Assembly (NCBI GenBank): GCA_965208105.1
Contig: OZ242318.1
Location: forward strand, 3,840,001-3,904,000
Length of the DNA: 64,000 nt
Reading direction: 5' to 3'
Source of the DNA: Candidatus Latescibacterota bacterium
GTDB taxonomy: Bacteria > Latescibacterota > UBA2968 > UBA8231
Shown here: piece after piece, positions 9,850 to 37,684 of the stretch
How the letters are laid out: every line of letters starts with the position of its first letter
Numbering within the stretch: the stretch's first letter is position 1
Translations under genes and position numbers: made by a program
The notes under the pieces: generated by a model
Databases searched by the model: none
What the model saw: only the letters and a program-made list of their open reading frames with translations
Told to the model about the DNA's origin: nothing

Positions 9850-9914
9850 GAATTGGCAGTAGTAGTCGAGGTGGAACAATAGGCAAGCTTGATTGCGAGC
9901 AATGCGCCTGCGGC
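9850..9914 (+). pseudogene. 3'-end scar of a CARDB-like lipoprotein gene plus its downstream spacer
   Basis: Encodes ELAVVVEVEQ*; closely matches 16884-16948 (ELVLVVEVEQ* and the following spacer). Confidence 0.7.
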
Positions 9915-10058
9915 CTGGGAAGAAATAAATTTGAGAGTAGGCGGAAAATTGATTTTGCGGACACTTTTCTTGGTTTTGGCCCTGCTGGATTATGCCTATT
10001 TTTTTCATGGATTCGAAATTTTGCTTCGTCCTGCACCATTCACCCGGAAGCTTGAATC

Positions 10059-10565
10059 ATGATCAGGTGTCTGTTGTGTGCATGTTTGCCCATCATTCTT
10101 CTCTACTGCGCCCGCAAGGGGGAGAATCCCCTGCCAGTAGAGCCGATCATGCCTTTACCAGACTACGATCTCGAGGCCACATCCTTAGAGTTTCGGACTG
10201 ATCCGAGCAAAGATCCTACCACTACCTTCCGTGTGGGTGAGGACCTGTGGGTGCGTTTTGCCATAAGCAACGTCGGAGTGCAACCTGTACGAAGGAAAGA
10301 CTTTAACTATTCTCTGCACCAAAATGATACAATCATCCAGCGCGCCCTGACGGAGCGGGGGACATGGCCAATCTATGATGGCCCCCCACTGGCGCCTGGG
10401 GACCAATATGAAATTTGGAAGTCGCCCCCCTATTCCCGTGAATGGACCTTTACGCAGAATCCAGGCACCTATGAGCTCAAGCTGGAAGTACTTTTACACC
10501 CTCAGTACGAGGAGCTGTTGAAAGACGACAACGTATTCACCCTGACGGTCGAGGTGAAGGAATAG
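10059..10565 (+). CDS. Putative lipoprotein, CARDB/Ig-like domain (copy L1)
   Basis: Hydrophobic leader ending LLYC; ENP, DYDL, NVG, PLAPG, PGTYEL and EE..KDDN motifs. Confidence 0.8.
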   Translation: MIRCLLCACLPIILLYCARKGENPLPVEPIMPLPDYDLEATSLEFRTDPSKDPTTTFRVGEDLWVRFAISNVGVQPVRRKDFNYSLHQNDTIIQRALTERGTWPIYDGPPLAPGDQYEIWKSPPYSREWTFTQNPGTYELKLEVLLHPQYEELLKDDNVFTLTVEVKE

Positions 10566-10582
10566 GTGAGAGCACAGACCGG

Positions 10583-11986
10583 ATGACCAACCAGATTATT
10601 CATGCCCGTTCCCGCCGCCTGTTGATTTTCGTAGGCGTCGCTCTTTTGGTTCACGGCGTGTTGGTGGTGGCCATTACCTACCGCGAAGTGTTGGAGCGGC
10701 CTGAGCCCGTGCTGTCGGGCAAGTTCGTCAAGCGCCGGCCCTTGCAGCAGCCGTATCTGGAGCGCCGGGTCGAGCGGCCTGCGCCCCTGCCTGTCCTCAA
10801 GCGTTCGGTGACCGCCTCGCGTCCCTATGCGCGCTCGGCGGTTCAGTACACCCTTGCCCCGGTTCATCCCCAACTGCTCGGCGCCCGGCTCGAGGTGCCG
10901 GAGCTGCCGCCGCGCCCACTCTCTTTGGCCAGGGGCCTTCCCTCCAGCGGGCGTTTGCGCTCCCTTCCCACCGAGGTGTCGGTGCAGGCGGCGGATCACC
11001 TGGATCTGGGGCTGGAGTTGCTGGACATCGACCATCTGGATACGGGTCGCTACCGGGCCCTGGTGGTGCAGGATCCGGCTGACCGCCGCAATCTGGAAGG
11101 GTACGTGCACTTTTCGGCGGTGGCCATTCCCTCGGTGCGGCGCATGGAGGGCGAGGACTGGGGCCCGTATCCGGCACAGGCCTTAGCGCGCAGTGTGGAT
11201 CGCCATAGTGCCGTTTTACCCGATTTCCGCCACAGCGCCAACATCCGCGCCCTGGCGTCCCTGGCGGCTGAACTGGAGGAGCAGACGGGGTTGAAGGCGG
11301 TGTTGGACGAGGATCTGGACTTGCAGTCGCCGGCGGTGCTGGAGAGTCCGTTCATCCTGCTGACCAGCGGCCGCCGGTTCGAGCCGAGCGCGGAGGAGGC
11401 GGAGCAACTGGGCAGGTATCTGGTGTCGGGCGGGTTCGCCTACGTGGAGCAGGTAGGCGCGCCGGTGCTGGAGTTTTTGCATGGCACCTTCCGGGATCTG
11501 CACTCCCTGCGGGACTTGATTCGCATGGCCCTGGCAAGCCAGGGTTTGAGTGAGGGTACGGACTGGAGTTTCGAGCCCCTGGATGGCGACCATCCCCTGT
11601 TTCACAGTTACTATGATATCGACACCTTGCCGACCAACTACTGGCGGGCGGTTTACTCCGATGTGTTCGGTTATCACTCTAGGCATCCGCAAGATTGGGG
11701 CTTCCGATCTGATCCGACTTACGAGGGAATCCCGCCCTATTTGGAGGGAATTCACCTGAATGGCCGCCTGGTGCTGGTCTATTCACAGCAGAACTTCCGC
11801 GATTTCTGGCGCCGGCGTCCGGAGCGTCATTTGACCCGGGCGTCGGAGGTATTCATTTGGGATCTCAATGAGTCTCCTCTCCACCGTCCCAGCAGCGATC
11901 CGGCGATCCGGCTGGGGATCAACGTGGTGGTGTTCGCGCTGACCCAGGAAGGGTCGCTGGCGCGGCGCTATGTCAAGGCGAGGTAA
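10583..11986 (+). CDS. Membrane-anchored DUF4159-domain protein (copy D1)
   Basis: N-terminal TM helix, Pro/Arg-rich linker; DUF4159-type motifs L-RYL-SGGF, HPLFHSYYD, LEGI-L-GRL, LGINVVVFALTQEGS. Confidence 0.82.
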   Translation: MTNQIIHARSRRLLIFVGVALLVHGVLVVAITYREVLERPEPVLSGKFVKRRPLQQPYLERRVERPAPLPVLKRSVTASRPYARSAVQYTLAPVHPQLLGARLEVPELPPRPLSLARGLPSSGRLRSLPTEVSVQAADHLDLGLELLDIDHLDTGRYRALVVQDPADRRNLEGYVHFSAVAIPSVRRMEGEDWGPYPAQALARSVDRHSAVLPDFRHSANIRALASLAAELEEQTGLKAVLDEDLDLQSPAVLESPFILLTSGRRFEPSAEEAEQLGRYLVSGGFAYVEQVGAPVLEFLHGTFRDLHSLRDLIRMALASQGLSEGTDWSFEPLDGDHPLFHSYYDIDTLPTNYWRAVYSDVFGYHSRHPQDWGFRSDPTYEGIPPYLEGIHLNGRLVLVYSQQNFRDFWRRRPERHLTRASEVFIWDLNESPLHRPSSDPAIRLGINVVVFALTQEGSLARRYVKAR

Positions 11987-11989
11987 ATC

Positions 11990-13675
11990 ATGATACTGAG
12001 GTGGCTCGCACTGGTCCTCCTCCTGCTGCGCCAGGGGGCGGCGGACCAGTGGGTGACCGTCGGCGCCGAGGACTTCGCCAAAGGGACCCTCAAAGGGGTG
12101 GAGGTCTCGCCTTCGGGAAAGCTGCGCCTGACCTTTTTCGAAGGAGCAAACCTGGCTCTGAAAATGGCGGCCAGGTCAGAGACCGGGGAGATCGTCCGCT
12201 CCTTCAGCGTTACCGACGGCAACCTTGCCACCGAATGGGATTTCGGCGGCAAGGCCCAGGTCATGGGCCGGACCATCGAGATTGATCTGGGCAGCAACCG
12301 CCTCGTCACCGGGGTGCGTATTCTACCCGGCAGTAAGTTGGGAAAACAGTATCCACAGTTCTATGTCAAGGGTTACCGCATCGACGTTGCCGCCGCCGAC
12401 GCCCCCGACCTCTGGATTCCGGTGGCCCAGAATCTCCTCAACCAGAACCGCTCCATCGACACCACCCTCGACCACACCTGGATGGAATTGGAGGAAGGTG
12501 CGCCCAAGCCTGTTGTTGCCCGCTACGTCCGCGTTACCGTAACGCGAGAGGATCCGCCCAACTGGGTGATCGTCGGTGAGGTGGAGGTCTACGGCACCGG
12601 ATTCACGTCCGCAGGTGAGTATACCTCGCTCCCCTACGAATTGGACTCCGAGATCTCCCATGCCAACCTGGGCACCTTGTTCTGGCGCGCAGAAGTGCCG
12701 GCTGGAACCAGGCTGAGCTGGCAGATTATTGCTTTGCGCCAGTTGCGTGCACAGCCCGATTGGAAAAGTGCACCGCTGATCGAATCAGAAGACGGCAGTG
12801 CCGGTATCGATTTGCGGTTGGAAGAGCGCGCCCGCTACGTGTGGTACAGGGTTTTGTTCGAGTCGGTCGATTCCCGCCTCAGCCCGGAACTGGAAGAGGT
12901 GGTGATCTCCTTCGATCAGAGCCTGATCGCCACTACCGCCCGCGGTTCGGTCGAGCCCCGGAGGGTAGCGGCGGGGGAGCCGGTGTCCCTTACCTACAAG
13001 GCCACCATAGGGGTCCGGCCCCATGACCACGGCGTGGATCTGCTGGTTCTCAACCGCTGGGGCGAGCTGGAGGAGCTATTGATCGACGGAACGAGAGTTC
13101 CACCAGGCGGGTATGAGATCATCGGCGACGAGTTCTCGGGTCAGAGGCCGAATCTTGCCCTGCGTCTGCACCCGGACTATCGCATTGGAGGTCGCGCGGA
13201 AATAGAGTTGAGGTTCACCACCGCGTTCCTCAAGGGGGCGGAGTTGGTGACCCTTTCCCTCGGGACTCTCGCGGAGGGAGCGGACCAGACCAACTTTCAG
13301 AAGGTCACCCTGCAGTTTTGGAATAGTACCCTGGTTGCCGTTTCCGGGGCCATGGAAAGCGTCCTGACCCCGTCCAGCGTGCGCTTCGTCCCCCGGATTT
13401 TCCGACCAGGCCCCGGTGGTGGTACCCAGCTTCACTTCGATCTGGCCAGGGTGCGGGTGCCGGTGCCGGTGAGCGTGGCTATCTTCGATCTTTCCGGGAG
13501 GCGCGTCCGTACCCTGATGGACGACACCCTGCTACAGTCGGGCCCCATTCTTGTCCCCTTTGACGGCTATGACGCCCGCGGCAGGGTGTTGCCGCCTGGC
13601 ATTTACCTGTGCCGCATCGAGGTCAGTGCTCAGCGCAAATTTACCGTGCTTCGCACACTCGGCATAGCCTATTGA
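11990..13675 (+). CDS. Secreted protein with discoidin (F5/8C)-like and C-terminal FlgD Ig-like domains (copy F1)
   Basis: Signal peptide; DGN--TEW, IDLG, ARYVRV, EVEVYG; C-terminal IFDLSGRRVRTL...DG-D--GR-LPPGIY-CRI...GIAY. Confidence 0.8.
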   Translation: MILRWLALVLLLLRQGAADQWVTVGAEDFAKGTLKGVEVSPSGKLRLTFFEGANLALKMAARSETGEIVRSFSVTDGNLATEWDFGGKAQVMGRTIEIDLGSNRLVTGVRILPGSKLGKQYPQFYVKGYRIDVAAADAPDLWIPVAQNLLNQNRSIDTTLDHTWMELEEGAPKPVVARYVRVTVTREDPPNWVIVGEVEVYGTGFTSAGEYTSLPYELDSEISHANLGTLFWRAEVPAGTRLSWQIIALRQLRAQPDWKSAPLIESEDGSAGIDLRLEERARYVWYRVLFESVDSRLSPELEEVVISFDQSLIATTARGSVEPRRVAAGEPVSLTYKATIGVRPHDHGVDLLVLNRWGELEELLIDGTRVPPGGYEIIGDEFSGQRPNLALRLHPDYRIGGRAEIELRFTTAFLKGAELVTLSLGTLAEGADQTNFQKVTLQFWNSTLVAVSGAMESVLTPSSVRFVPRIFRPGPGGGTQLHFDLARVRVPVPVSVAIFDLSGRRVRTLMDDTLLQSGPILVPFDGYDARGRVLPPGIYLCRIEVSAQRKFTVLRTLGIAY

Positions 13676-13766
13676 GCAGGAGGGAACCGCTGAAAGGTTT
13701 GCATATCTTCAATCAAGGACTCGAAACTGTGCCTCGTACTGCGCCCGATGCAGGGAGGTAGAAATC

Positions 13767-14273
13767 ATGATCAGGTGTCTGTTATGGACATGTTTGTCGA
13801 TCTTTCTTTTGCACTGCTCTCGTCAGGGCAAGAATCCTCTGCCCCTGACCCCGACCATGGCTATCCCGGACCATGATCTCGAGGCCACATACTTAGAGTT
13901 TCGGACTGATCCGCGCGAAGATCCTACCACTGCCTTTCGTGTGGGGCAGGACGTGTGGGTGCGTTTCGCCATAAGCAACGTCGGAGTGCGCCCTGTACGA
14001 AGGAAAGACTTTAACTATTCTCTGCACCAAAATGATACAATCATCCAGCACGCCCTGACGGAGCGGGGGACCTGGCCAATCTATGATGGCCCCCAACTGG
14101 CGCCTGGGGACCAATATGAAATTTGGAAGTCGCCCCCCTATTCCCGTGAATGGACCTTTACGCAGAATCCAGGCACCTATGAGCTCAAGCTGGAAGTATT
14201 TCTGCACCCTCGGTACGATGAGCAGTTCACAGACGACAACGTTTTCATCCTGACGGTCGAAGTGAAGGAATAG
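13767..14273 (+). CDS. Putative CARDB-like lipoprotein (copy L2)
   Basis: Paralogue of 10059-10565; lipobox-like LLHC; RBS GGGAGG. Confidence 0.8.
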   Translation: MIRCLLWTCLSIFLLHCSRQGKNPLPLTPTMAIPDHDLEATYLEFRTDPREDPTTAFRVGQDVWVRFAISNVGVRPVRRKDFNYSLHQNDTIIQHALTERGTWPIYDGPQLAPGDQYEIWKSPPYSREWTFTQNPGTYELKLEVFLHPRYDEQFTDDNVFILTVEVKE

Positions 14274-14290
14274 ATGAGAGCACAGACCGG

Positions 14291-15697
14291 ATGACCAACC
14301 AGATTATTCATGCCCGTTCCCGCCGCCTGTTGATTTTCGCAGGCGTCGCTCTTTTGGTTCACGGCGTGTTGGTGGTGGCCATTACCTACCGCGAAGTGTT
14401 GGAGCGGCCTGAGCCCGTGCTGTCGGGCAAGTTCGTCAAGCGCCGGCCCTTGCAGCAGCCGTATCTGGAGCGCCGGGTCGAGCGGCCTGCGCCCCTGCCT
14501 GTCCTCAAGCGTTCGGTGACCGCCTCGCGTCCCTATGCGCGCTCGACGGTTCAGTACACCCTTGCCCCGGTTCACCCCCAACTGCTCGGCGCCCGGCTCG
14601 AGGTGCCGGAGCTGCCGGCGCGCCCACTCTCATTGGCCAGGAGCCTTCCCTCCAGCGGGCGTTTGCGCTCCCTTCCCACCGAGGTGTCGGTGCAGGCGGC
14701 GGATCACCTGGATCTGGGGCTGGAGTTGCTGGACATCGACCATCTGGATACGGGTCGCTACCGGGCCCTGGTGGTGCAGGATCCGGCTGACCGCCGCAAT
14801 CTGGAAGGGTACGTGCACTTTTCGGCGGTGGCCATTCCCTCGGTGCGGCGCATGGAGGGCGAGAACTGGGGACCGACTACCCTGCCGGGCTTGGCGCGCG
14901 CTGTGGATCGCGAGATAGCCATTTTTCCAGATTTGCGCCACAGCGCCAACATCCGCGCCCTGGCGTCCCTGGCGGCTGAACTGGAGGAGCAGACGGGATT
15001 GAAGGCAGTGTTGGACGAGGATCTGGACTTGCAGTCGCCGGCGGTGCTGGAGAGTCCGTTCATCCTGCTGACCAGTGGCCGCCCGTTCGAGCCGAGCGCG
15101 GAGGAGGCGGAGCAACTGGGCAGGTATCTGGTGTCGGGCGGGTTCGCCTACGTGGAGCAGGTGGGTGCGGAGTATCCGGAGTGGAAGCATGGCTCCTTCC
15201 GCGATCTGCACTCTCTGCGGGACTTGATTCGCATGGCCCTGGCAAGCCAGGGTTTGGGGGAAGGCGTGGACTGGAGTTTCGAGCCCCTCGATGGCTACCA
15301 TCCCCTGTTTCACAGTTACTACGACATCGGCACCTTGCCGACCAGCTACTGGAGGGCGATTTGGGCAAATGTTTTTGGTGAGGCCAGTGGGGTAGCTCAG
15401 GGGACGCTTGAACCGTCGCCGACCTTTGAGGGCATCCCGCCCTATCTCGAAGGCATCCACCTGGATGGCCGCCTCGTGCTGGTCTATTCGCAGCAGAACT
15501 ACCGTGATTTCTGGTGGCGGCGTCCGGAGCGCCATTTGACCCGAGCGGCGGAGACCCTGATATGGGATTTCAACCAGTCTCCGCTCCACCGTCCGAGCAG
15601 CGATCCGGCGATCCGGCTGGGGATCAACGTGGTGGTGTTCGCGCTGACCCAGGAGGGATCGTTGGCTAGGCGCTACGTCAAGCGCGGTAATTCATGA
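14291..15697 (+). CDS. DUF4159-domain protein (copy D2)
   Basis: Near-identical to D1 outside variable patches. Confidence 0.82.
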   Translation: MTNQIIHARSRRLLIFAGVALLVHGVLVVAITYREVLERPEPVLSGKFVKRRPLQQPYLERRVERPAPLPVLKRSVTASRPYARSTVQYTLAPVHPQLLGARLEVPELPARPLSLARSLPSSGRLRSLPTEVSVQAADHLDLGLELLDIDHLDTGRYRALVVQDPADRRNLEGYVHFSAVAIPSVRRMEGENWGPTTLPGLARAVDREIAIFPDLRHSANIRALASLAAELEEQTGLKAVLDEDLDLQSPAVLESPFILLTSGRPFEPSAEEAEQLGRYLVSGGFAYVEQVGAEYPEWKHGSFRDLHSLRDLIRMALASQGLGEGVDWSFEPLDGYHPLFHSYYDIGTLPTSYWRAIWANVFGEASGVAQGTLEPSPTFEGIPPYLEGIHLDGRLVLVYSQQNYRDFWWRRPERHLTRAAETLIWDFNQSPLHRPSSDPAIRLGINVVVFALTQEGSLARRYVKRGNS

Positions 15698-15872: not shown

Positions 15873-16381
15873 ATGATCAGGTATATTTTGTTGGCATGTT
15901 TTCATTTTCTTCTTTTTCACTGCGCCCGCGAAGGAGAGAATCCCCTGCCCATAGAGCCCATCCAGATTCTCCCAGACTACGATCTTGAGGCAACGTCCTT
16001 AGAATTCCGGATTGATCCTGAAAAGGCCCTACCACTGCCTTTCGCGTGGGCCAAGACGTGTGGGTGCGTTATGTAATAAAGAACCTTGGATTGCAAACTG
16101 TATCCATGAGAGCCAATTCATATTCCTTGCGCCAAAATGAAAAACTCGTCAGGTCGGCCGTGGATGAGTGGGGGGTTTGGCACGGCCTAAGAGGCTCGCC
16201 ACTGGCGTCTGGAGACTCACTGAGGTTAGGGCTCTCTCCCCCATATTCCTCCCGTGAATGGACCTTCACGGAACAGCCCGGCATCTATGAACTCAAGTTG
16301 AAAGTCTTTCTACATCCTCGGTACGAGGAGGAGAACAAAGACAACAACCAATTTACCGTGACGGTCGAGGTGAGAGAGTAG
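15873..16381 (+). pseudogene. Frameshifted CARDB-like lipoprotein (copy L3)
   Basis: ORFs 15873-16076 and 16046-16381 join into a full L1/L2 paralogue if one base is restored in the A-run at 16021-16024. Confidence 0.8.
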
Positions 16382-16436
16382 TACAGATGAGGATCGGATG
16401 AAAATCCGCGAGATTCGGAAACGCTCTCAGCGCTGG

Positions 16437-16916
16437 ATGGAAAAACCGGCATTGCTGGCATGCCTGTCGGTTTTTTTTCTGTGCTGTTCACGTGCCGGCG
16501 AAAACCCTTTGCCGATCGAACCCCTTCTTCCCCGTTCCGAGTACGACCTGGAAGCGTCGGAATTAAAGATCCAGAATCAACAAGGTGGACCGCATAGACC
16601 GAGGATAAAAATAGGCGCAGATGTCTGGATCTTTACCAGTATATGCAACGTGGGACTACAGCCCATCCCTGGCGCGTACTACGGAGAGTCTCTGGAGGTA
16701 AACGGCAAAATCGTACACCGGCATTCATTAGGTGTATATTCATCTTTTGGACCATTGGCGCCTGGAGGATGCAACAAAGGGGCGGTAAGTTTATCGCGGA
16801 TGCCGGAGGAGCCGGGTCGATACGAGTTCAAGTTCCAAGTGCATCTCTCTTCCAGGCTTGAGGAGGAGAACAAGGACAACAATGAGTTGGTGTTGGTAGT
16901 CGAAGTGGAACAATAG
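16437..16916 (+). CDS. Putative CARDB-like lipoprotein (copy L4); ORF extends upstream to 16398
   Basis: FFLCC lipobox-like, GENPLPIEP, YDLEA, NVG, PLAPG, EEENKDNN. Confidence 0.78.
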   Translation: MEKPALLACLSVFFLCCSRAGENPLPIEPLLPRSEYDLEASELKIQNQQGGPHRPRIKIGADVWIFTSICNVGLQPIPGAYYGESLEVNGKIVHRHSLGVYSSFGPLAPGGCNKGAVSLSRMPEEPGRYEFKFQVHLSSRLEEENKDNNELVLVVEVEQ

Positions 16917-17044: not shown

Positions 17045-18454
17045 ATGAGAAACCGCAAAATGCGGGGTCGCACTCAGCGCTGGTGGTTTTTCATCGGCGT
17101 CGCTCTCCTGGTTCACGGCGTGTTGGTGGTGGCCATTACCTACCGCGAAGTGTTGGAGCGGCCTGAGCCCGTGCTGTCGGGCAAGTTCGTCAAGCGCCGG
17201 CCCTTGCAGCAGCCGTATCTGGAGCGCCGGGTCGAGCGGCCTGCGCCCCTGCCTGTCCTCAAGCGTTCGGTGACCGCCTCGCGTCCCTATGCGCGCTCGA
17301 CGGTTCAGTACACCCTTGCCCCGGTTCATCCCCAACTGCTCGGCGCCCGGCTCGAGGTGCCGGAGCTGCCGGCGCGCCCCCTCTCATTGGCCAGGGGCCT
17401 TCCCTCCAGCGGGCGCTTGCGCTCCCTTCCCACCGAGGTGTCGGTGCAGGCGGCGGATCATCTGGATCTGGGGCTGGAGTTGCTGGACATCGACCATCTG
17501 GATACTGGTCGCTACCGGGCCCTGGTGGTGCAGGACCCTGCTGACCGCCGCAATCTGGAAGGGTACGTGCACTTTTCGGCGGTGGCCATTCCCTCGGTGC
17601 GGCGCATGGAGGGCGAGGACTGGGGCCCGTGGACGTGGGAGTCCATAGCGCGCAGCGTGGATCGGGAGATGTCCACATTTCCCGATTTGCTCCACAGCGC
17701 CAATATCCGCGCCCTGGCGTCCCTGGCGGCTGAACTGGAGGAGCAGACGGGGTTGAAGGCGGTGTTGGACGAGGATCTGGACTTGCAGTCGCCGGCGGTG
17801 CTGGAGAGTCCGTTCATCCTGCTGACCAGCGGCCGCCCGTTCGAGCCGAGCGTGGAGGAGGCGGAGCAACTGGGCCGATACCTGGCGTCGGGCGGGTTCG
17901 CCTACGTGGAGCAGGTGGGCGCGCCGTGGCCGGAGCTTCAGCAAGGCACCTTCCGCGACCTGCACTCCCTGCGCGACCTGATTCGCATGGCCCTGGCAAG
18001 CCAGGGCTTGAGTGAGGGTACGGACTGGAGTTTCGAGCCCCTTGGTCACGACCATGCCCTGTTTCACAGTTACTACGACATCGAAACCCTGCCCACCAAC
18101 TACTGGCGAGCAATCTGGGCAGATGTGAGTGGTCTTAGGGCGGTGGGAGTGGCTAGTGGAGGGCTTACACCGTCGCCGACTTTCGAGGGAATCCCGCCCT
18201 ATTTGGAGGGGATTCACCTGGATGGCCGCCTGGTGCTGGTCTATTCGCAGCAGAACTACCGTGATTTCTGGTGGCGGCGTCCGGAGCGCCATTTGACCCG
18301 AGCGGCCGAGCCCCTGATATGGAACTTCAATGAATCTCCGCTCCACCGTCCGAGCAGCGATCCGGCGATCCGGCTGGGGATCAACGTGGTGGTGTTCGCG
18401 CTGACCCAGGAGGGATCGTTGGCTCGTCGCTACGTCAAGCGGGGCAAATCATGA
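17045..18454 (+). CDS. DUF4159-domain protein (copy D3)
   Basis: Near-identical to D1/D2 except N-terminus and variable patches; ATGA overlap with next gene. Confidence 0.82.
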   Translation: MRNRKMRGRTQRWWFFIGVALLVHGVLVVAITYREVLERPEPVLSGKFVKRRPLQQPYLERRVERPAPLPVLKRSVTASRPYARSTVQYTLAPVHPQLLGARLEVPELPARPLSLARGLPSSGRLRSLPTEVSVQAADHLDLGLELLDIDHLDTGRYRALVVQDPADRRNLEGYVHFSAVAIPSVRRMEGEDWGPWTWESIARSVDREMSTFPDLLHSANIRALASLAAELEEQTGLKAVLDEDLDLQSPAVLESPFILLTSGRPFEPSVEEAEQLGRYLASGGFAYVEQVGAPWPELQQGTFRDLHSLRDLIRMALASQGLSEGTDWSFEPLGHDHALFHSYYDIETLPTNYWRAIWADVSGLRAVGVASGGLTPSPTFEGIPPYLEGIHLDGRLVLVYSQQNYRDFWWRRPERHLTRAAEPLIWNFNESPLHRPSSDPAIRLGINVVVFALTQEGSLARRYVKRGKS

Positions 18455-29517: not shown

Positions 29518-30248
29518 CCAGGATGATCCCGGCCGTGATGGCGACGTGGCTGGGGGCTGCCGGCTGCGGTCTCTTGCCGGTGCCCAAATCCCACCTGGTG
29601 CGCCTTGCCTTCGTGCCCGGCGAGAGGGCGGCCTACTCCGTCGATGCGGCCGACAGCGCCGCGGTCTATCGCACCGAGGGCCTGGTCGTCAAGGTGAGCT
29701 ACCGCTCGAAGCAGGCCCTCAACCTGGAGTATCCCGACGCCCGCGAGGGCCGGGTCAATCTCAACCCCTTCACCTACGGCCCCCGCATGGACAACGATCT
29801 GGGCTACGCCCCGGACCGCTTCACCGTCTTCGAGGTGGACTTCAACAACATCGGCCGGCCCCGGGTTCAGTTTACCGCGCAGGACGCCGAGCTGGTCACC
29901 GACCGCGGCGACCGGCTGCGGCCCTGGGGCACGCAGAAGGGGGAGGCGGAGGACACCTTCGAGGAGTATTACCGCGCCCGGCGCGGCCCGGGGGGCAACG
30001 ACCAGCAGTGGTATCGGCAGCGTCTGGCCATCGTGGAGAAATCGCTCTACCGCGGTGACGGGCCCTTGTTCAAGGGTCAACGCCAGCGCGGCAAGCTGGT
30101 GTTCGGCCTTTTGCACCCGGAGGTGGCCTCGGTGCGCCTGCACCTGCGCGAGGTGGTCCTGGCCTTCGACGAGCACGGGCTGCCCACCGAGCGCATCGAT
30201 CTGGAGTTTCCCTTCGAGATCAGCGTCGAGGTCGAGGAGCTGGAGTGA
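29514..30248 (+). CDS. Hypothetical lipoprotein
   Basis: Lipobox AAGC; translationally coupled to exbD; host-like codon usage. Confidence 0.78.
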   Translation: MTRMIPAVMATWLGAAGCGLLPVPKSHLVRLAFVPGERAAYSVDAADSAAVYRTEGLVVKVSYRSKQALNLEYPDAREGRVNLNPFTYGPRMDNDLGYAPDRFTVFEVDFNNIGRPRVQFTAQDAELVTDRGDRLRPWGTQKGEAEDTFEEYYRARRGPGGNDQQWYRQRLAIVEKSLYRGDGPLFKGQRQRGKLVFGLLHPEVASVRLHLREVVLAFDEHGLPTERIDLEFPFEISVEVEELE

Positions 30249-30301
30249 GTTGGGCAGCAATGGCAACTGAAGCAAGCATCGGGAGAGTGTGGCGCTGGGC
30301 A

Positions 30302-30865
30302 ATGTGGAAAGATGAGAGATCGTTCTGGACCGGATCGTGCTTGCTATTCTGCTATGTAGTGGCACTAGGTCTGGCGGCCTGTACGCAAGAAGGCGAGAAT
30401 CCATCGCCTTTCGACATACAAAAGGGTAGTGTTCAGGAGCCATTTGACATTGCAGTCACCTATTTTACCTGGGACTCCAGAAAAATAACTTTGACCGACG
30501 ACAACAGCTATGCCGTAGAGGTCGTAAACGCAGGCACCGATACCCTGAACTTTTACAAGATCGAAATCTATTTTGACGATAACCTAAGGAATCGCTACGA
30601 GAACCGACCTGAGTTGCTGCACCCCGGTCCGCTGGTTCCGGGTGATACAGAGTGTTTAATATGGGCAAGTGGGTCGGGAAGCCCTCCCAGACCACCAAAG
30701 GAGCCTGGACGCCACAGCTACCGGGTAGTGGCCAGTCTGCCGAGCGGCTACGCTGAAATGAATCTCTCCAACAACGAACTTGTGGGCTTTTTCGAAATAA
30801 GTGCCAGTGCCAAACGGACGAATCTTTTTTCATCGAAGCCGCTGGTCGGATGTCGACGGTATTAG
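30302..30865 (+). CDS. Putative CARDB-like lipoprotein (copy L5)
   Basis: Lipobox LAAC, GENP, FDIAV, NAG, PLVPG, PGR-SY, E-NLSNN; start uncertain. Confidence 0.72.
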   Translation: MWKDERSFWTGSCLLFCYVVALGLAACTQEGENPSPFDIQKGSVQEPFDIAVTYFTWDSRKITLTDDNSYAVEVVNAGTDTLNFYKIEIYFDDNLRNRYENRPELLHPGPLVPGDTECLIWASGSGSPPRPPKEPGRHSYRVVASLPSGYAEMNLSNNELVGFFEISASAKRTNLFSSKPLVGCRRY

Positions 30866-30933
30866 GCCATTTGGGTGAGGAAGGGCTTTCTAGATTCGCC
30901 CAGTGACGTTTAAGAAGGAGAGATGTGGAGATC

Positions 30934-31479
30934 ATGTCCTGGACCGGATCGCGCTTGCTATTCTGCTATGTCCTGGCACTAGGTCTGGCTGGCTGTACGC
31001 GAGAAGGCGAGAATCCATCGCCTTTCGACATCCAAAAGGGTATTGTTCAGGAGCCGTTTGATATCGCCGTTACCTATTTTACCTGGGATTCCAGAAAGGT
31101 ACAGGGGGCCGACCTTGACGGCTATGGGGCAGAGGTCGAAAATGCCGGAACCGATACCCTTGACTTCTACAAGATCGAACTTTTTTTTGACGATAAGCTT
31201 GTTCATCGCCTTGAAAACCGGCCTGATTGGCATCCCGGTCCGCTGGCCCCGGGTGAAGAACACTGTAGAGGGTGGGGCAATGCGTGGGGAAACCCTCCCA
31301 ACAATGCACCGAAAGAACCAGGACGCTACAGCTACCGGGTAGTGGCCAGTTTACCGAGCCGCTACGCTGAAAAAAATCTCTCCAACAACGAACTTACCGG
31401 CTTTTTCGAGATAGGGGGCAGCTCCAAACCGGCGATTCTCTTTTCATCGAAGGCTCTGGTCGGATGCCGACGGTATTAG
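30934..31479 (+). CDS. Putative CARDB-like lipoprotein (copy L6), tandem duplicate of L5
   Basis: Lipobox LAGC; shares N- and C-terminal DNA with L5, both end LVGCRRY*. Confidence 0.75.
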   Translation: MSWTGSRLLFCYVLALGLAGCTREGENPSPFDIQKGIVQEPFDIAVTYFTWDSRKVQGADLDGYGAEVENAGTDTLDFYKIELFFDDKLVHRLENRPDWHPGPLAPGEEHCRGWGNAWGNPPNNAPKEPGRYSYRVVASLPSRYAEKNLSNNELTGFFEIGGSSKPAILFSSKALVGCRRY

Positions 31480-31612: not shown

Positions 31613-33004
31613 ATGAAAGGTGCTTGTCGATGGTTTTCCCTCGCGCCGCGCAACAGCCATCGGCGGTTGTGGTACTTCGTGATCCTTGCCCTGTTGGTAC
31701 ACGGAGTGCTGGTGGCAGTGATCACTGTTCGCACGCTGGAGCAGAACAGGGAGCGGGAGCTTTCGAGTCGTTTCGTCAAACGCCGACCACTGAAACAGCC
31801 CGTATTGAGGCGCCAGGTGGAACGGCCATTCCCGCTGCGCCCCATGCAGCGATCGATTCAGCCTTTCCTTCCTTTTACCCGCGCCATCGCGCAGCACACA
31901 CCCGATCCGAGACCTCCTGAACTCCTCGCTCACCGCGAGGCTGTCTCCTTGCCGCCGCGGCCGATGGGATTCCCCAGTGGTTTTCCCGCCTCGAGGAGCT
32001 TGCGCTCTGAGCCGTCCAAAGTGTCGGTGCAAGCGGAGAACTACCTGGACCTGGGATTGGAGTTGCTGGATGTGGAGGCGCTGGACACGGGACGCCATCG
32101 TGCGCTTGTAGTGGAAGATCCAATCGACCGCCGCAAGCTCAAAGGATTCGTCCATTTTTCAGCAGTACTGATAGAATCCGTATTCGAGAGCGCCGCCAAT
32201 CTGGGTCATTTCGCTCGAACCTCTGCTTATTCTGTGGACAGGCAAATTACCTATGTCCCCGATTGGCGTCATTCGGCCAACGTGAAAGCCCTTCAGGGCC
32301 TGGCGAGCGAGATAGAGGAAAAAACCGGGCTCAAGGCAGTGGTGGACGAGGACATAAGTCTGGATGCTTCCGAACTGCTGTCCAGCCCCTTCATCCTGCT
32401 CACCAGCACTCACGAGTTCGAACCGACCGAGGGGGAAATCAACAACCTGGGCCGCTACCTTACTTCCGGAGGGTTCGCCTACGTCGAGCAAGTGGGTACG
32501 AATAGAGAAGGATGGACATCCGGTAGTTTCCCCGAGCTGATTTCCCTTCGCCACCTGGTGGGTCGCGCTCTAGCCAGTCGGGGTCTTCGCGAAGGAAAGG
32601 ACTGGAGTTTTGAACCGTTGACCGGCGAGCATCCGCTATTTGCAGCGTATTATAGTCTGCACAGGGTGCCGACAAGCTACTGGGAATCCATTTACAGACC
32701 TCCTGACCATGTGGGCCATAGTCGCCATACGCCAAGGACCGCAGATATACCGCCCTACGTTGAAGGAGTACATTTGAACGGTCGTCTGGTCGCGATATAC
32801 TCCAGGCAGAACTACAGGGATTTCTGGTACCGGCGTCCCGAGCAGAATCTGACCAACGCATCGGACTACGTGCTGTCGAACTTTGTAGATGTTGCCACTC
32901 ACAAACCCAGCAGCGATCCCGCCATTCGATTCGGGATCAATGTGGTCGTGTTTGCTCTGACACAGGAAGGTTCCCTTGCCCGACGATATGTCAGAGCGCG
33001 GTAA
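31613..33004 (+). CDS. DUF4159-domain protein (divergent copy D4)
   Basis: Same architecture: ALLVHG TM, FVKRRPL, LDTGR, FGINVVVFALTQEGS. Confidence 0.82.
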   Translation: MKGACRWFSLAPRNSHRRLWYFVILALLVHGVLVAVITVRTLEQNRERELSSRFVKRRPLKQPVLRRQVERPFPLRPMQRSIQPFLPFTRAIAQHTPDPRPPELLAHREAVSLPPRPMGFPSGFPASRSLRSEPSKVSVQAENYLDLGLELLDVEALDTGRHRALVVEDPIDRRKLKGFVHFSAVLIESVFESAANLGHFARTSAYSVDRQITYVPDWRHSANVKALQGLASEIEEKTGLKAVVDEDISLDASELLSSPFILLTSTHEFEPTEGEINNLGRYLTSGGFAYVEQVGTNREGWTSGSFPELISLRHLVGRALASRGLREGKDWSFEPLTGEHPLFAAYYSLHRVPTSYWESIYRPPDHVGHSRHTPRTADIPPYVEGVHLNGRLVAIYSRQNYRDFWYRRPEQNLTNASDYVLSNFVDVATHKPSSDPAIRFGINVVVFALTQEGSLARRYVRAR

Positions 33005-34705: not shown

Positions 34706-34707
34706 GG

Positions 34708-37356
34708 ATGTCCAGGTATGTCGTGACTCGGCAATTCCCAATCACGCTGTTGGTCCTCTCTCTTGCTTCAGGAGTCCTCGGCCTGGAGGCGGACTTCAGG
34801 GGTTTTCTCCAACGCCCCGGGATGGAAGCCTACCGCAACTACGCGGAGTACTCCTACCATAACTACCGCTCCCTTTTCCGGGTCGACCCGCGCTACAACT
34901 TCTTCGGAGATTTTCTTGCGGTAGGCTTTCGCGCCTTCAGATTGAATGACCAGAACCCCGGAAAGAGCCTCATTTCCAAGGACGGGGTCTACCGCGCCAT
35001 GTTCAGCAATTTGCTCATGGCGCGCAACTCCTACGGGCGCCTCAACCTGGCCCTGACCGTCGGTGACAAGGTGCGCACCCACCTGACTCCCCTGACCATG
35101 CAGCGGGCCAGCTTCAACGGTCTGCGCTGGGAGATCGAGTTCGCCAACAACCGGGTGACTCTGCTCAGCTCGCGCGGCTTCGACAATTCGGAGTTCCCGG
35201 CTTTCCCCAGCTTTTCTACTCCCATCGACGACGATTTCACCGACTTCCAGGGCGATTTGAACCGGGAATTCGTTATCGAAGAGGACAACCCGGTCTACAC
35301 CTTCGGCGGCCACTGGGAAACCCAGGCGGGGGACGTGCTCACCCTGGGAATGACCTTTCTCAACCAGCGGCAGGTCAATTTCGGAGCCTTTCGCCAAGAC
35401 AGCTTCTTCGCCGGCAGCGTGCCTTATCCCGAAATGTTGTCCCCTGAGAAGCTGATGCTGCGCATCACCGACGACTCCCCTCGCAGTACGGAACATGGCG
35501 CCACCATATTTTCCGTCTTTCTGGAAATGGAGGGGACTATGGGTGGAGTGAACGCCACAATCAGCAGCGATCCACTCAGCCCCCATTTCGACGAGTCGCT
35601 GCAGCCTCTGGTGAGGGGCGTGGCGAAGAAGGATGAAAGGTGGGACATTCGCGGCGACGAGGAACTGATCATAACTTTCGAGCTGCCGATAGGAACTCCT
35701 TCAAAACGCGCCCGCTTCGTCGTGGCGGCGGCCAACGACTATCGCATCGCCGCGGCGCAGGAACACCTGTTCTACCAGACCGGAAATTCGCGCACGACCC
35801 CGTACATGACCCTGCGCCGCGCCGCCGGAGAGGTGAGCGACGGCTCCAACTTCCGGGAGCTGGTGATCGACTACGGTCTCAACAGCGGCCAGACCTTCTA
35901 CGGCATGGACTTCGCCGCCGACCTGGCGGGATTCAAGCTGCGCGGCGAGGTGTCGAAAAACACCCTCTACCGCAAGTACCCGATCATTTCCGGCCGCAGC
36001 CTGCGCCGCGATACCGGGGCCTGGTACCTGCAGGCGGTAAGGACCTTTCCGCGCCTGCGCCGGCTTTCCTTCGGCGCCGAGTTCTTCCACCTCGGCCCGC
36101 GCTACGGCGGCGGCTACGACAGCCGCCGCGGCGGCGTGGTGCTCTACACCGACACGGGGGGAGACGGCATCAGTCAGGTGGTGGCCGAGTTCCCCCTGGT
36201 GGACGACAACGACGACAACGACCGCTACTCCGACGACAACAAAAACGACTTCCCCGGCTCCTTCGACCTGGAATCGGGGGTCTACCCGGGGCTCGACGAA
36301 GACAACGACAACATCCCCGACGACGACCGCAACGCCAACGGCATCCCCGATTTCGAGGAGCCCTTCCTGCTCTACCATTCCGACCCCCAGGAGTTCGTCT
36401 ATGGCCTGGACCTGAACAACAACGGGGTCATCGACGTGCGCGAGAACGACAACAAGCCCGACTATCCCTACGACCGCGACCGCCGCGGCCGCCACTACAC
36501 CGTGGCCCTGCAGCCTTTGCCGCAGCTGGAGGTGGGGGCGGGTCACTACCGCATCCGCGCGTTGGCCGACCCCGGGCGCACCGTCTCCACCTACCTGCGC
36601 GCCGCCTACTCTTACGCCCACCCCGAGAGGCTGGAGATCGAGCTCAACCACGACTCCAAGCGGGTCAGGGACACTATTCCCGATTCGGTCTACGTCTTCG
36701 ATCCGGCCCGCATCGTGACGCCCCTGGAACCGCCGGACCCCGATCCCCTGCTGCAACAGAACAGTTGGGTGCACACCTCCTTTGCCGGGGTGCGCTGGAG
36801 CCGCTGGGCGCCGCTCTACCTGGAGGCCAATTTCAGACAGGTCCTCAACCGCCTGTTCGACCTGGGCCACACGCGGGTGTCGGAGCGCGACCGCCGGGTG
36901 ACCCGGACCATGGTCAACAAGGTGGACTATCGGATGGAGTGGGGCCGCTTCACGGTGATGCCCATGTACAAGCGCCTGTGGCGGCGGGTGGATCTGGACT
37001 CCCGGGAGGGTGCGGCGGTGCATGAGGTGCAGTCGGCGCCGATGCTGCGGGTGGACTACCGGGTGAGCGGAGACATGAAGGTGCAGATGGGCCAGCAGGG
37101 ACTGCGGCTTCCCTTCCTGGGCATGGACCGTGTGCTGGCGTTTCACCTGGACGACCAGGTGCGGCGCTACCGCAGCTACACCTCCACCGACTTCATGTTC
37201 ATGCTCACGTTGAAGGGCAGCTACCTGGGCAACGTGCTGACGACCAACTCGGGGATTCAACTGCACAGCCGCCGGTTCGACCAGATCGGGGCGGGGTCGG
37301 ATCTCAAGTTCACCCGCTTCTTCGTGGAAGTGGTGGCCGGATTCGAGCATTTCTGA
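34708..37356 (+). CDS. Asp-rich putative outer-membrane protein (copy B3)
   Basis: Paralogue of B1/B2; ATG 34708 gives a signal peptide; ends FFVEVVAGFEHF. Confidence 0.72.
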   Translation: MSRYVVTRQFPITLLVLSLASGVLGLEADFRGFLQRPGMEAYRNYAEYSYHNYRSLFRVDPRYNFFGDFLAVGFRAFRLNDQNPGKSLISKDGVYRAMFSNLLMARNSYGRLNLALTVGDKVRTHLTPLTMQRASFNGLRWEIEFANNRVTLLSSRGFDNSEFPAFPSFSTPIDDDFTDFQGDLNREFVIEEDNPVYTFGGHWETQAGDVLTLGMTFLNQRQVNFGAFRQDSFFAGSVPYPEMLSPEKLMLRITDDSPRSTEHGATIFSVFLEMEGTMGGVNATISSDPLSPHFDESLQPLVRGVAKKDERWDIRGDEELIITFELPIGTPSKRARFVVAAANDYRIAAAQEHLFYQTGNSRTTPYMTLRRAAGEVSDGSNFRELVIDYGLNSGQTFYGMDFAADLAGFKLRGEVSKNTLYRKYPIISGRSLRRDTGAWYLQAVRTFPRLRRLSFGAEFFHLGPRYGGGYDSRRGGVVLYTDTGGDGISQVVAEFPLVDDNDDNDRYSDDNKNDFPGSFDLESGVYPGLDEDNDNIPDDDRNANGIPDFEEPFLLYHSDPQEFVYGLDLNNNGVIDVRENDNKPDYPYDRDRRGRHYTVALQPLPQLEVGAGHYRIRALADPGRTVSTYLRAAYSYAHPERLEIELNHDSKRVRDTIPDSVYVFDPARIVTPLEPPDPDPLLQQNSWVHTSFAGVRWSRWAPLYLEANFRQVLNRLFDLGHTRVSERDRRVTRTMVNKVDYRMEWGRFTVMPMYKRLWRRVDLDSREGAAVHEVQSAPMLRVDYRVSGDMKVQMGQQGLRLPFLGMDRVLAFHLDDQVRRYRSYTSTDFMFMLTLKGSYLGNVLTTNSGIQLHSRRFDQIGAGSDLKFTRFFVEVVAGFEHF

Positions 37357-37414
37357 GCGGAGCCTTCGCCCATGACTCTCATAACCATGTTGTTCGACTT
37401 TCCTGATAACCGAT

Positions 37415-37555
37415 CTGCCGGCCGCGGGTCCAGTTTGCCGCGCAGGACGCCGAGCTGGTCACCGGCCGCGGCGACCGGCTGCGGCCCTGGGGCACGCAGA
37501 AGGGGGAGGCGGTGCACACCTTCGAGGAGAGTACTACCGCGCCCGGCGCGGCCCT
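37415..37555 (+). pseudogene. Internal fragment of the 29514-30248 lipoprotein gene
   Basis: cgcaggacgccgagctggtcacc...ccctggggcacgcagaagggggaggcgg nearly identical to ~29855-29990, with indels. Confidence 0.8.
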
Positions 37556-37684
37556 GTTGGCGCCGGCTACGCGGCTGCATCCAACTGACTCAGGAGGCGG
37601 GATCGACTCGGGCCGGAGAGGGGCGCCGGCAATGGATGCGAGGGTGACGGACGAACCGCGTGACTTGGGGCAGGTGTTGGAGCT

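Follow-up and report, generated by a model that had tools for sequence, protein, structure and literature searches.

Known uses of proton-driven 5:2 motors (ExbBD, TolQR, AglRQS) are import, the maintenance of the envelope and gliding, which they drive through couplers like TonB and TolA. In a window of 64,000 nucleotides from the genome of Candidatus Latescibacterota bacterium (GenBank assembly GCA_965208105.1, contig OZ242318.1, positions 3,840,001 to 3,904,000), we found a gene run of about 28 kb that belongs to a conserved, uncharacterised system of motor-driven periplasmic force transducers of the Ton/Tol/Glt type. We tentatively interpret this window locus as an amplified and partly eroded paralogue of an envelope machine resembling Ton and the core of Glt, probably dedicated to the capture and import of glycans; we give this reading as a whole a little less than an even chance, and are less confident still about the glycan substrate. 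It draws on the domain content and fold class of the predicted proteins, the conserved gene order, the co-occurrence of the gene families and the duplication history of the locus. Judging from its predicted genes, the machine is complete in another locus of the same genome (locus 3) and in other genomes, and it occurs in metagenome-assembled genomes (MAGs) labelled as Latescibacterota and in a few others labelled as FCB-group members (Fibrobacteres-Chlorobi-Bacteroidetes).

The run extends from 10059 to 37356 without interruption and comprises 20 open reading frames (ORFs), all on the + strand, as found with an ORF listing and a crude whole-genome gene call. Intergenic spacing ranges from -67 to +133 nt, with the sole exception of a 348-nt gap after B2, so that the tightly spaced, single-strand 28-kb organisation proposed in a preliminary description of the locus was borne out. 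The gene order is A1-B1-C1 / A2-B2, truncated A / A3-B3-C3-D3-D3b / T-ExbB-(ExbD remnant)-Lp1 / Lp2-Lp3-B4-C4-D4, with the following features:

10059..10565 (+): A1, probable small lipoprotein of unit 1 (168 aa), with an N-terminal hydrophobic segment containing a Cys; no Pfam or NCBIfam match
10583..11986 (+): B1, 467 aa, with a short cytoplasmic N-terminus, a transmembrane (TM) helix at residues 10-37, a basic and Pro-rich linker and a DUF4159 head (65.6 bits)
11990..13675 (+): C1, 561 aa; a signal peptide is followed by a discoidin (F5/8 type C) domain, and the C-terminal domain is like FlgD_ig or the C-terminal domain (CTD) of type IX secretion system (T9SS) cargo
13767..14273 (+): A2, unit 2, 82% identical to A1
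14291..15697 (+): B2, unit 2, DUF4159 at 59.1 bits, 89% identical to B1 and B3, followed by neither C nor D
16046..16381 (+): relic A-type fragment of 111 aa that lacks the N-terminal signal part and aligns to A1 residues 59-168 at 54%
16398..16916 (+): A3, unit 3, 37% identical to A1
17045..18454 (+): B3, unit 3, DUF4159 at 60.9 bits, with an 85%-identical orthologue in a genome of the same genus (G151)
18451..20136 (+): C3, unit 3, 77% identical to C1
20153..22783 (+): D3, predicted giant outer-membrane (OM) beta-barrel with an Asp-rich insert; the ORF opens at 20126 and the database form, P0001, has 876 aa
22793..25429 (+): D3b, second D barrel, 58% identical to D3
25457..28600 (+): T, 1047-aa tetratricopeptide repeat (TPR) protein with an N-terminal hydrophobic segment and Pfam TPR families
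28628..29284 (+): ExbB/TolQ-family proton-channel subunit, MotA_ExbB at 101 bits
29281..29517 (+): ExbD remnant of 78 aa without TM helix, an ExbD1/ExbD2 chimera
29514..30248 (+): Lp1, 244-aa lipoprotein with lipobox AAGC, a short form of the L family that holds only its beta-sandwich part
30245..30865 (+): Lp2, A-like lipoprotein with lipobox LAAC, 72% identical to Lp3
30925..31479 (+): Lp3, A-like lipoprotein with lipobox LAGC, tandem duplicate of Lp2
31613..33004 (+): B4, unit 4, DUF4159 at 65.3 bits
33017..34705 (+): C4, unit 4, FlgD_ig at 27 bits and F5_F8_type_C at 26 bits, 67% identical to the C protein of locus 2
34708..37356 (+): D4 barrel, 89% identical to the D protein of locus 2; the ORF opens at 34639 and the likely start is the Met after the C4 stop
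37413..37554 (+): internal fragment of an Lp1 gene (142 nt), a putative recombination scar, 93% identical to 29850-29989 and 95% to the Lp1 gene of locus 2

Pfam searches detected DUF4159 in all four B proteins (463-469 aa; 59-66 bits against a cut-off of 25.9), F5_F8_type_C and FlgD_ig in all three C proteins (561-562 aa; several scores near or below the cut-offs), TPR families in T and MotA_ExbB (PF01618) in the 218-aa ExbB. The three D proteins (~880 aa), A1, A2, A3, Lp1, Lp2 and Lp3 matched no family in Pfam or NCBIfam. Paralogy among the locus proteins is far above chance, with BLASTP identities of 86-89% among B1, B2 and B3 (55-57% between these and B4), 77% between C1 and C3 (44% with C4), 57-61% among D3, D3b and D4, 82% between A1 and A2 (37% between A3 and A1), and 72% between Lp2 and Lp3, which are distantly A-like. 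The preliminary description had seen here four units of lipoprotein, DUF4159 protein, discoidin protein and Asp-rich protein in varying completeness, with single TPR, exbB, exbD and lipoprotein genes in the middle. The repeated paralogues are indeed there and completeness does vary, unit 1 lacking D and unit 2 lacking both C and D; the Asp-rich D proteins occur only in unit 3 (twice) and unit 4. The TPR, ExbB and Lp1 genes are each present once in mid-locus, but the supposed exbD is the 78-aa remnant, and two A-like lipoprotein genes follow Lp1.

Two further loci of the genome contain the same set of genes. Locus 3 (genome 1.772-1.793 Mb) carries on one strand a lipoprotein (171 aa), C, C, D, D, T (1101 aa), B (403 aa), L (427 aa) and D, and on the divergent strand ExbB, ExbD and ExbD. 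Locus 2 (genome 4.580-4.599 Mb) contains two A, B, four A, B, C, D, T, ExbB, ExbD1, ExbD2, Lp1 and a split D. In each of them the two ExbD genes are intact and TolR/ExbD-like, encoding a helix with the conserved Asp (...LIDC/G...). The window ExbB scored 79.6 bits with the NCBIfam TolQ model and 70.8 bits with the ExbB model, each below its equivalog cut-off. The whole genome encodes only five MotA_ExbB-family genes, none of them in a recognisable tol-pal operon. The fifth, divergent one (genome 2856963-2857262) lies near genes for DUF2149, CobN, a periplasmic binding protein, a FecCD permease and a TonB-dependent receptor, and looks like part of a separate motor-linked metal or corrinoid cluster.

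The B proteins consist of a short cytoplasmic N-terminus, one TM helix, a conserved basic motif, a variable linker and the DUF4159 head. Because the canonical operon of the genome reads TPR-ExbB-ExbD-ExbD-TonB and the present system T-(x-x)-ExbB-ExbD-ExbD-B-L, B occupies the operon slot of TonB. The motif, of the type hhRKPRMTKPFEFxK, lies 10-25 residues after the helix and is kept as far as the loci L117 and L118, from MAGs labelled Bacteroidetes and Ignavibacteriaceae, respectively; according to the excerpted text of Williams-Jones et al. 2025 (PMC12204202), TonB and TolA bear their 'motor box' just after the TM helix. A relative of the DUF4159 head has been crystallised as an uncharacterised Haliangium protein (PDB 4i66, E = 1.3e-17). 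No TonB_C domain was detected on B, the only match to PF03544 above cut-off in the genome being at 2164054. We also considered the TM histidine of B1-B4 as a TonB-like docking residue and rejected it for want of conservation, since only 35 of 75 full-length B proteins have it. T is composed of repeated YbgF/CpoB-like and BamD-like TPR units (NCBIfam); its similarity to PorW/SprE is weak (74 bits for the window copy and 117 bits for that of locus 3, against a cut-off of 250), and so is its similarity to GltE.

The L family, to which Lp1 belongs (36% identity to the L protein of locus 3), provides the homology link to a characterised machine. Among the 42 L proteins found in the 80 related loci described below, 31 are long (at least 379 aa), 10 have 242-276 aa and one is a 183-aa ORF. 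We aligned 13 long sequences, namely 12 of those 31 and the L protein of locus 3, in which the lipobox Cys (Cys31) is invariant. The AgmX/PglI C-terminal domain (NF033768) was found in all 13, at 60.8 bits in locus 3 L (cut-off 40); GltG models matched 9 and GltJ models 2 of them, the GltG and GltJ equivalog scores being far below the cut-offs. In the genome this domain has a single match, at 1775448-1775669 in locus 3, and the window Lp1 lacks it. With a profile of the L family, the six best PDB matches were all TonB entries (E = 9e-4 to 0.02), and Pfam TonB_C matched 6 of the 13 long proteins at E <= 1. The model of locus 3 L, with a pLDDT (predicted score in the local distance difference test) of 76, likewise suggests a beta-sandwich similar to that of YcdA and YjhA, two Bacillus lipoproteins (Z = 7.3-7.7), and a C-terminal domain that aligns to those of TonB proteins over 78-90 residues (Z = 7.2-7.9, root-mean-square deviation 2.3-3.0), although VIA Z values below 8 can reflect a common arrangement. 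In L117 and L118 a second DUF4159 domain forms the end of the L protein, and the next genes encode a DUF5683 protein and a protein with a T9SS tail.

The D proteins are predicted to fold as giant OM beta-barrels of a family without Pfam match. An AlphaFold2 model of D3 built with 29 sequences (pLDDT 70.1, predicted TM-score 0.71) is all-beta; we counted some 30 or more long strands in its DSSP list. The C-terminal residue of D is aromatic. The best PDB matches in Foldseek were the MtrB sheath barrel (E = 7.5e-11), Deinococcus SlpA and LptD (the three within E = 7.5e-11 to 6e-7) and TonB-dependent transporters, with TM-scores of only 0.14-0.34 and 7-10% sequence identity; two D relatives also matched Pfam SlpA_C weakly (E = 2.3e-5 and 0.03). 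D differs from the MtrB, SlpA and LptD barrels by a conserved N-terminal stretch and Asp-rich insert of its own. The Asp-rich stretch (residues 504-595) is the most conserved part of D, containing 29 of the family's 56 invariant columns, and is modelled with low confidence; the first 60 residues of the mature protein are also conserved and poorly modelled. The insert bears a likeness to EF-hand, thrombospondin type 3 or dockerin loops, but its reading as a Ca-binding repeat was rejected, as no profile supports it. The assignment of D to a known family was tried and rejected, since the Atlas clusters are unnamed and the nearest named family, DUF6029, scores 0.89, below the trust line. Among 1.84 billion proteins, the D family extends to 904 representative clusters if E <= 0.001 is required, to 612 under a limit of 1e-10 and to 280 under one of 1e-30.

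An alignment scan of species-representative genomes with the B family revealed 193 loci with a relative, the best 80 of which we analysed, many of them ending at contig ends. Most of the records are titled 'Candidatus Latescibacterota', and some 'Gemmatimonadetes/-ota' or 'uncultured bacterium'. At least one partner gene was found by ORF and BLAST labelling in 67 of these 80 loci: T in 48, D in 44, L in 42 (directly after B in 39), ExbB in 31, and ExbD and C in 30 each. Two arrangements are the most frequent, ExbD-ExbD-ExbB with divergent T-B-L-A-C-D-D, and D-D-T-x-x-B-L-x-ExbB-ExbD-ExbD. Hand inspection confirmed the same gene set in four other genomes of the phylum (G003, G006, G019 and G060), for instance as C-x-D-D-T-x-x-ExbB-ExbD-ExbD-B-L in G006, and the order extends to L117 (C-PorV/PorQ-like-D-T-ExbB-ExbD-B-L) and L118 (T-ExbB-ExbD-B-L). 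Conservation of the gene neighbourhood, which the preliminary description had left to be checked, was therefore borne out in the two other loci of the genome, in four phylum genomes and in most of the best 80 of the 193 B loci. Of 151 sampled genomes of the phylum, 92 have L, 96 have B (E <= 1e-20) and 94 have D. The three occur together in each of the 63 genomes of the window's own family; in the 51 genomes of three other families (f2, f3 and f4) L and D were not found, and B has two matches of about E = 1e-21, both in f2. The sampled genomes being kin, this co-occurrence is a pattern and not a statistical test. Related genomes carry up to 18 copies of L. Additional proteins appear in related loci. 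A DUF5683 protein with an adjoining small ORF recurs in the cluster (L087:7224-7820 in G006, L117:12771-13376 and L118:7386-8138) and has no counterpart in the window locus, and in another locus (L049:4119-4865, -) the ExbD genes are succeeded by those for a carbohydrate-binding module family 9 (CBM9) protein and a TPR protein of 590 aa.

Outside the three system loci, D genes are dispersed over the genome, which has 42 ORFs labelled as D by BLAST, 33 of them scattered. Three marker families accompany them: F0 (~500 aa, no family, no signal peptide), F1 (~660 aa, DUF6785 and DUF6784, with at least 8 hydrophobic segments, a polytopic membrane protein) and F2 (~650 aa, with a signal peptide and an FlgD_ig/Por_Secre_tail end). 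An F0, F1 or F2 gene lies within four genes of 17 of the 33 scattered D genes, as against 12.4% of all genes, and F2 alone within four genes of 10 of the 33 (background 2.5%). In four neighbourhoods scanned, other neighbours were FG-GAP/ASPIC proteins, a sulfatase, a GHL6/fucosidase-like protein, GFO/IDH/MocA oxidoreductases and a major facilitator superfamily transporter. Many D genes sit in glycan-utilisation-like clusters. PhyH genes (family F7) also recur near them.

These features suggest the following mechanism, in which every contact between parts, the way transport runs and the nature of the substrate are inferred. Proton flow through a motor of one ExbB/TolQ-type channel and two ExbD/TolR-type subunits would pull or turn the single-pass inner-membrane protein B; the force would then pass through the lipoprotein L and the periplasmic TPR protein T (1050-1100 aa) to one to three D barrels, which, together with the lectin-like surface protein C, would capture and admit large substrates, most likely glycans. 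The roughly 30 D paralogues scattered over the genome would be served by these motors too, in the way that a single TonB serves many TonB-dependent transporters. The small lipoprotein A is a further part of the complete machine. That the complex spans the envelope, as the preliminary description had proposed, agrees with the signals for inner membrane, periplasm, outer membrane and surface carried by its parts. We favour glycan capture and import because of the combination of few motors with many barrels, the transporter and sugar-enzyme genes next to the latter and the carbohydrate-binding type of domain in C. Having no intact ExbD and only a short L, the window copy must borrow these parts from locus 2 or 3 or work only partly.

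Several observations weigh against this reading. An ordinary TonB system is encoded in the genome as well, along with 24 Plug-domain matches, which makes a second importer unnecessary. D3 has no Pfam match even at E <= 10, no Plug or TonB-dependent-receptor signature and no NCBIfam match, and the low confidence of the model in the N-terminal stretch and the Asp-rich insert makes any gating by force a conjecture. The TonB-like domain is borne by the lipoprotein L and not by a membrane-anchored protein, its structural matches stay at the Z values below 8 given above, and Foldseek returned no match for the L model at E <= 0.001 (best E = 4.6e-3). In the structural model of Glt, as given in the excerpted text of Attia et al. 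2025 (PMC11761067), the TonB-like domains of GltG and GltJ bind the TPR protein GltD and not a barrel. The TM histidine, through which TonB and TolA dock on the motor, is present in B1-B4 and absent from locus 3 B, marker genes flank only 17 of the 33 scattered D genes, and the window copy, devoid of ExbD and of the L C-terminal domain, may not work as a unit.

The comparison with the Ton system helps to delimit the proposal. Both share the motor gene families and the operon layout of the genome's own TPR-ExbB-ExbD-ExbD-TonB, and in both there are few motors and many scattered OM barrels, paired with surface proteins in clusters reminiscent of sugar utilisation. However, the TM protein B has no TonB_C, D has no Plug or receptor domain and resembles barrels that include the non-TonB-dependent MtrB, SlpA and LptD, and the surface partners are T9SS-tailed instead of SusD-type lipoproteins. 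Of the parts of a Ton system, the window locus holds an ExbB; an ExbD with TM helix and Asp, a TonB and a receptor with Plug were not found in it. A bolder version of the importer reading would see the D proteins, with their conserved and possibly Ca-binding Asp-rich insert and tens of copies per genome, as a new class of energised plug-less importers powered not by TonB but by a separate Glt-core-like chain (ExbB/ExbD, B, L and T). Latescibacterota and some relatives would then have, next to TonB, a second, independently evolved Ton-like system for nutrient uptake, and the gliding machine of Myxococcus would descend, as a cousin, from an ancestral device for import or force transduction; we consider this version somewhat unlikely.

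A second point of comparison is the family of motor-driven force transducers with von Willebrand factor A (vWA) heads, of unknown function, which the excerpted text of Williams-Jones et al. 2025 (PMC12204202) names in Proteobacteria, Planctomycetes, Verrucomicrobia, Bacteroidetes and Rhodothermaeota. The excerpt describes the same succession of TPR, tolQ-like and two unlike tolR-like genes, followed by a protein with TM helix, disordered linker and globular non-TonB head, as seen here in G006, G019, L076, L083, L087 and others, and a conserved element just after the helix, at the 'motor box' position. The heads differ, since the only Pfam match of B is DUF4159 and not vWA, and the SHLS/His motif reported there for the TM helix compares with a His in 35 of 75 B proteins. 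The term 'DUF4159' is absent from the main text and one supplement file of that paper.

The closest likeness, drawn already in the preliminary description, is to the Agl-Glt machinery of Myxococcus, and it is strengthened by the homology link through the AgmX/PglI (GltG/GltJ) domain, which exceeds the NCBIfam cut-off on full-length L proteins and is missing from the window copy. In the excerpted text of Luciano et al. 2011 (PMC3169522), the Glt 'core complex' is made up of aglR, aglQ, aglS, gltD, gltE, gltG and gltC, and its function outside gliders is given as unknown. Like Agl-Glt as described there, the present system has one TolQ/ExbB-like and two TolR/ExbD-like genes (in loci 2 and 3, not in the window), a large TPR protein (T of ~1050-1100 aa, compared with the 1191-aa GltD, a likeness of size and TPR type), several cluster copies per genome and no function established outside gliding bacteria. 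In the structural model excerpted from Attia et al. 2025 (PMC11761067), the TonB-like domains of GltG and GltJ dock on the giant GltD. The differences concern the carriers of the domains: L is a lipoprotein, whereas GltG consists of a forkhead-associated (FHA) domain, a TM helix, a linker and the C-terminal domain; the TM protein beside the present motor carries DUF4159; and the giant D barrels, the A lipoproteins and the T9SS-tailed discoidin protein are additions. The present system thus shares its layout with both Glt and the vWA-headed transducers and one domain family with Glt, and lacks defining features of each.

This likeness sustains the strongest of the rival explanations, a surface conveyor of the Glt/Nfs type, in which the motor would move D and the T9SS-displayed C for gliding, for adhesion to surfaces of hosts or particles, or for the handling of a surface polymer, without import. 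The only family-level homology to a characterised machine, the domain present in all 13 long L proteins tested, leads to Glt, where the corresponding domains dock on GltD in the model of PMC11761067; the one TolQ-like and two TolR-like genes and the ~1100-aa TPR protein mirror AglR/AglQ/AglS and GltD (PMC3169522, excerpt); C combines an adhesin-like discoidin domain with a T9SS tail and is adjoined by PorV/PorQ-family barrels in G003 and L117; and amplification of the surface module would fit the diversification of adhesins. Nevertheless, CglB had no match in two genomes of the genus, a weak result as the control matched nowhere either, and for GltE there was no convincing match (16.5 bits against an NCBIfam cut-off of 225). 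The Glt OM proteins listed in the excerpt of PMC3169522 are small (GltA 256, GltB 275, GltH 209 and GltK 170 aa), unlike D, and Luciano et al. there call the core complex alone unlikely to drive motility. The GltG-type domain sits on a lipoprotein instead of a TM protein, and 42 D ORFs lying beside transporter-like and sugar-metabolism genes look like import receptors more than conveyor parts. On balance we judge a conveyor unlikely.

In the literature searched, on DUF4159, on DUF5683, DUF6785 and DUF6784, on Latescibacteria in connection with ExbB and on TonB and polysaccharide utilisation in Latescibacterota, we found no description of the present system or of the D barrel family; the excerpted text of Youssef et al. 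2015 (PMC4454575) mentions only ordinary TonB import. No characterised operon matching the gene set emerged from that literature, in agreement with the preliminary description, whose author did not recognise it as a named system.

The history of the window copy bears on another alternative, namely that it is an inert, decaying by-product of duplication and recombination and that only loci 2 and 3 are functional. G151 has one window-type locus, B-C-D-D-T-ExbB-[660-nt interval with ExbD]-Lp1-D. Since this single locus is simple, and DNA identity between the window units is high (86% over 3184 nt for units 1 and 3, 90% over 1990 nt for units 1 and 2), we conclude that units 1 and 2 are recent tandem duplications. 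The modules that had been proposed as interchangeable are recent tandem duplicates (86-91% nucleotide identity), which the genome of the same genus lacks. Lp2 and Lp3 are 80% identical over 609 nt of DNA, and a contig from a relative joins 30457 to 31072, which corresponds to a single copy. Unit 4 resembles locus 2 at the sequence level. The proteins of the window and locus 2 are 98.6% identical for ExbB, 94.5% for Lp1, 89% for D4 and 67% for C4, but only 52% for T; as the ExbB-Lp1 segment is 95-98% identical while T is not, a recent exchange of sequence between the two loci is likely. By its similarity to both Lp1 genes, the 142-nt fragment after D4 appears to mark a recombination scar.

The same comparison delimits the loss of ExbD. 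Window and locus 2 DNA are 97.7% identical up to 29314 and 95.5% from 29357, and between these points locus 2 has ~650 nt, which contain two complete exbD genes, and the window 42 nt. The remnant is an in-frame fusion in which residues 1-11 and a piece from the middle of ExbD1 lead into the C-terminal portion of ExbD2, and its 78 aa include neither a membrane helix nor the conserved Asp. Relative to G151, in which 660 nt separate ExbB from Lp1 as against 50 nt in the window, ~610 nt have been lost. The one shared motor of the preliminary description therefore fails in the window copy. None of the contigs listed for a near-identical run (X1) bridges 29244-30221, which leaves the assembly as the sole source for the deletion junction; in relatives (X4 and X10), contigs match up to 29314 and again from 29361, and one X10 contig continues for 279 further letters, which fits the presence of other sequence there in relatives and is no proof for the source genome. 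In locus 2, the D gene after Lp1 (genome 4596478-4599145) is split into two ORFs of 438 and 474 aa that together make up a whole D, through either a frameshift or a sequencing error.

For an inert copy speak the ExbD remnant, the two further relics (the N-terminally truncated A at 16046-16381 and the Lp1 fragment at 37413-37554), the recent exchange of the ExbB-Lp1 segment next to a TPR gene of only 52% identity and the simple locus of G151 with its full-length ExbB-Lp1 interval. On the other hand, the frame is open in each of the 17 full-length genes between A1 and D4 inclusive, and ratios of nonsynonymous to synonymous substitution rates (dN/dS) are 0.35-0.46 for the young duplicate pairs of A, B and C, and 0.10 for ExbB and its locus 2 twin. 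With intact ORFs and ratios below 1, the duplicated genes are not neutral wrecks, and locus 2 could supply ExbD in trans, so that we regard an inert copy as distinctly unlikely.

The C proteins direct attention to the T9SS. Pfam FlgD_ig scored 27.0 bits in C4 (cut-off 27), 18.5 in C1 and 17.6 in C3, and the CTD part of the PorU profile weakly matches the C-termini of C1 and C4 (E = 5e-4 to 7e-4); the C proteins are not among the 45 genome matches of TIGR04183. Judging from these sequence matches, C is probably displayed on the cell surface by means of a type IX secretion tail. One might then suppose that the machine is a helper of the T9SS or of surface attachment that places, anchors or turns over cargo such as C, with D as a docking or translocation barrel. 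The FlgD_ig/Por_Secre_tail-type ends of C and of the F2 proteins, the proximity of F2 to 10 of the 33 scattered D genes, the weak similarity of T to PorW/SprE and the PorV/PorQ-family barrel within the L117 cluster (93.5 bits, cut-off 90) would agree with this role. Against it, the genome has its own SprA (a 2082-aa ORF at 1887162-1892303) and PorU and would not need a second translocon, and many D neighbourhoods have no T9SS-tailed gene. The identification of D with the SprA translocon or with PorV is not supported, SprA being a separate ORF and D having no NCBIfam match. GldM_1st was not found in the genome, which says little, given that control genomes were also below cut-off. We know of no T9SS part that uses ExbB/ExbD, and consider such a helper very unlikely.

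Finally, a role like that of Tol-Pal in envelope maintenance (OM tethering or support of constriction) seems most improbable: the slightly better score of ExbB with TolQ than with ExbB models, the YbgF/CpoB-like units of T, the lack of a recognisable tol-pal operon around the five MotA_ExbB genes and a best TolB-propeller match in the genome of 159 bits (cut-off 343) would favour it, but three loci in the present genome, up to 18 L copies in related ones, recent amplification and a barrel family of 42 ORFs are unlike housekeeping, neither the TolB propeller nor OmpA/Pal is among the scanned locus genes, and one Latescibacteria MAG is listed with a tolR-tolA-tolB-pal-cpoB locus in the supplement of PMC12204202, as excerpted. 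The TolB-like gene giving that match lies next to locus 2 and was rejected as a candidate TolB, being a PD40 propeller beside a gene for an extracytoplasmic function (ECF) sigma factor, without Pal. This divergent group upstream of locus 2 (genome 4577130-4579628, -), which also includes two small ORFs, is a possible regulator of the locus.

The window starts (3-1712, +) with the C-terminal part, the barrel (PF00593), of a TonB-dependent receptor of the ordinary kind, whose Plug lies just upstream (genome 3839067), so that classical transporters and the new barrels are found side by side. Two PhyH-family dioxygenase genes precede the locus (4491-5465, -; 6803-7657, +), as does a gene at 8517-9662 (-) which we rejected as a locus member, as it encodes an enolase-superfamily (mandelate racemase-like) enzyme. 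A promoter-like site was noted at 9853-9880, but promoter and terminator counts are not above shuffled expectation. Downstream we noted two features:

38252..38278 (+): terminator-like hairpin with a 10-bp stem and a T run, possibly the end of the transcription unit, a weak indication as the site count in the region is not above shuffled expectation
38361..41892 (+): F0 (38361-39866, 501 aa) and F1 (39916-41892, 658 aa) genes, typical of D-gene neighbourhoods

Just before the hairpin, ~77 nt (38163-38239) match three other places of the genome at 77-86% identity and may be a small repeated intergenic element. Farther downstream, 41904-49043 (-) holds an oligopeptide-type ATP-binding cassette (ABC) transporter cluster (two permeases and two family-5 binding proteins) and, after it, a gene for an S15 X-Pro dipeptidyl-peptidase, and 60001-62000 has a G+C content of 0.47, compared with ~0.62 in the rest of the window, and may be foreign or mobile DNA.

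Part of the segment 28900-29900 was present in 23 public runs from 13 studies, most of them labelled 'sponge metagenome', and a large part of the locus is represented, at 90-99% identity, in contigs from two other studies. Eight listed contigs of an RNA library (X22; 184-351 nt, ~90-97% identical) fall on D3, D3b, T, ExbB, Lp1 and C4; since such libraries can contain DNA, these contigs cannot show transcription and are at most a hint for relatives of the source organism.

To the known couplers and barrels of proton-driven motors, the system described here adds a coupler with an unstudied DUF4159 head, a lipoprotein with a GltG/GltJ-type domain outside the myxobacteria and a large unannotated family of giant barrels. 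If the latter are motor-dependent importers, they would explain polymer uptake by an abundant uncultured lineage and provide a candidate ancestral function for the 'core complex' of the gliding machinery. The window shows this system in evolutionary motion, with tandem gain of modules, exchange between loci and loss of parts of the motor.

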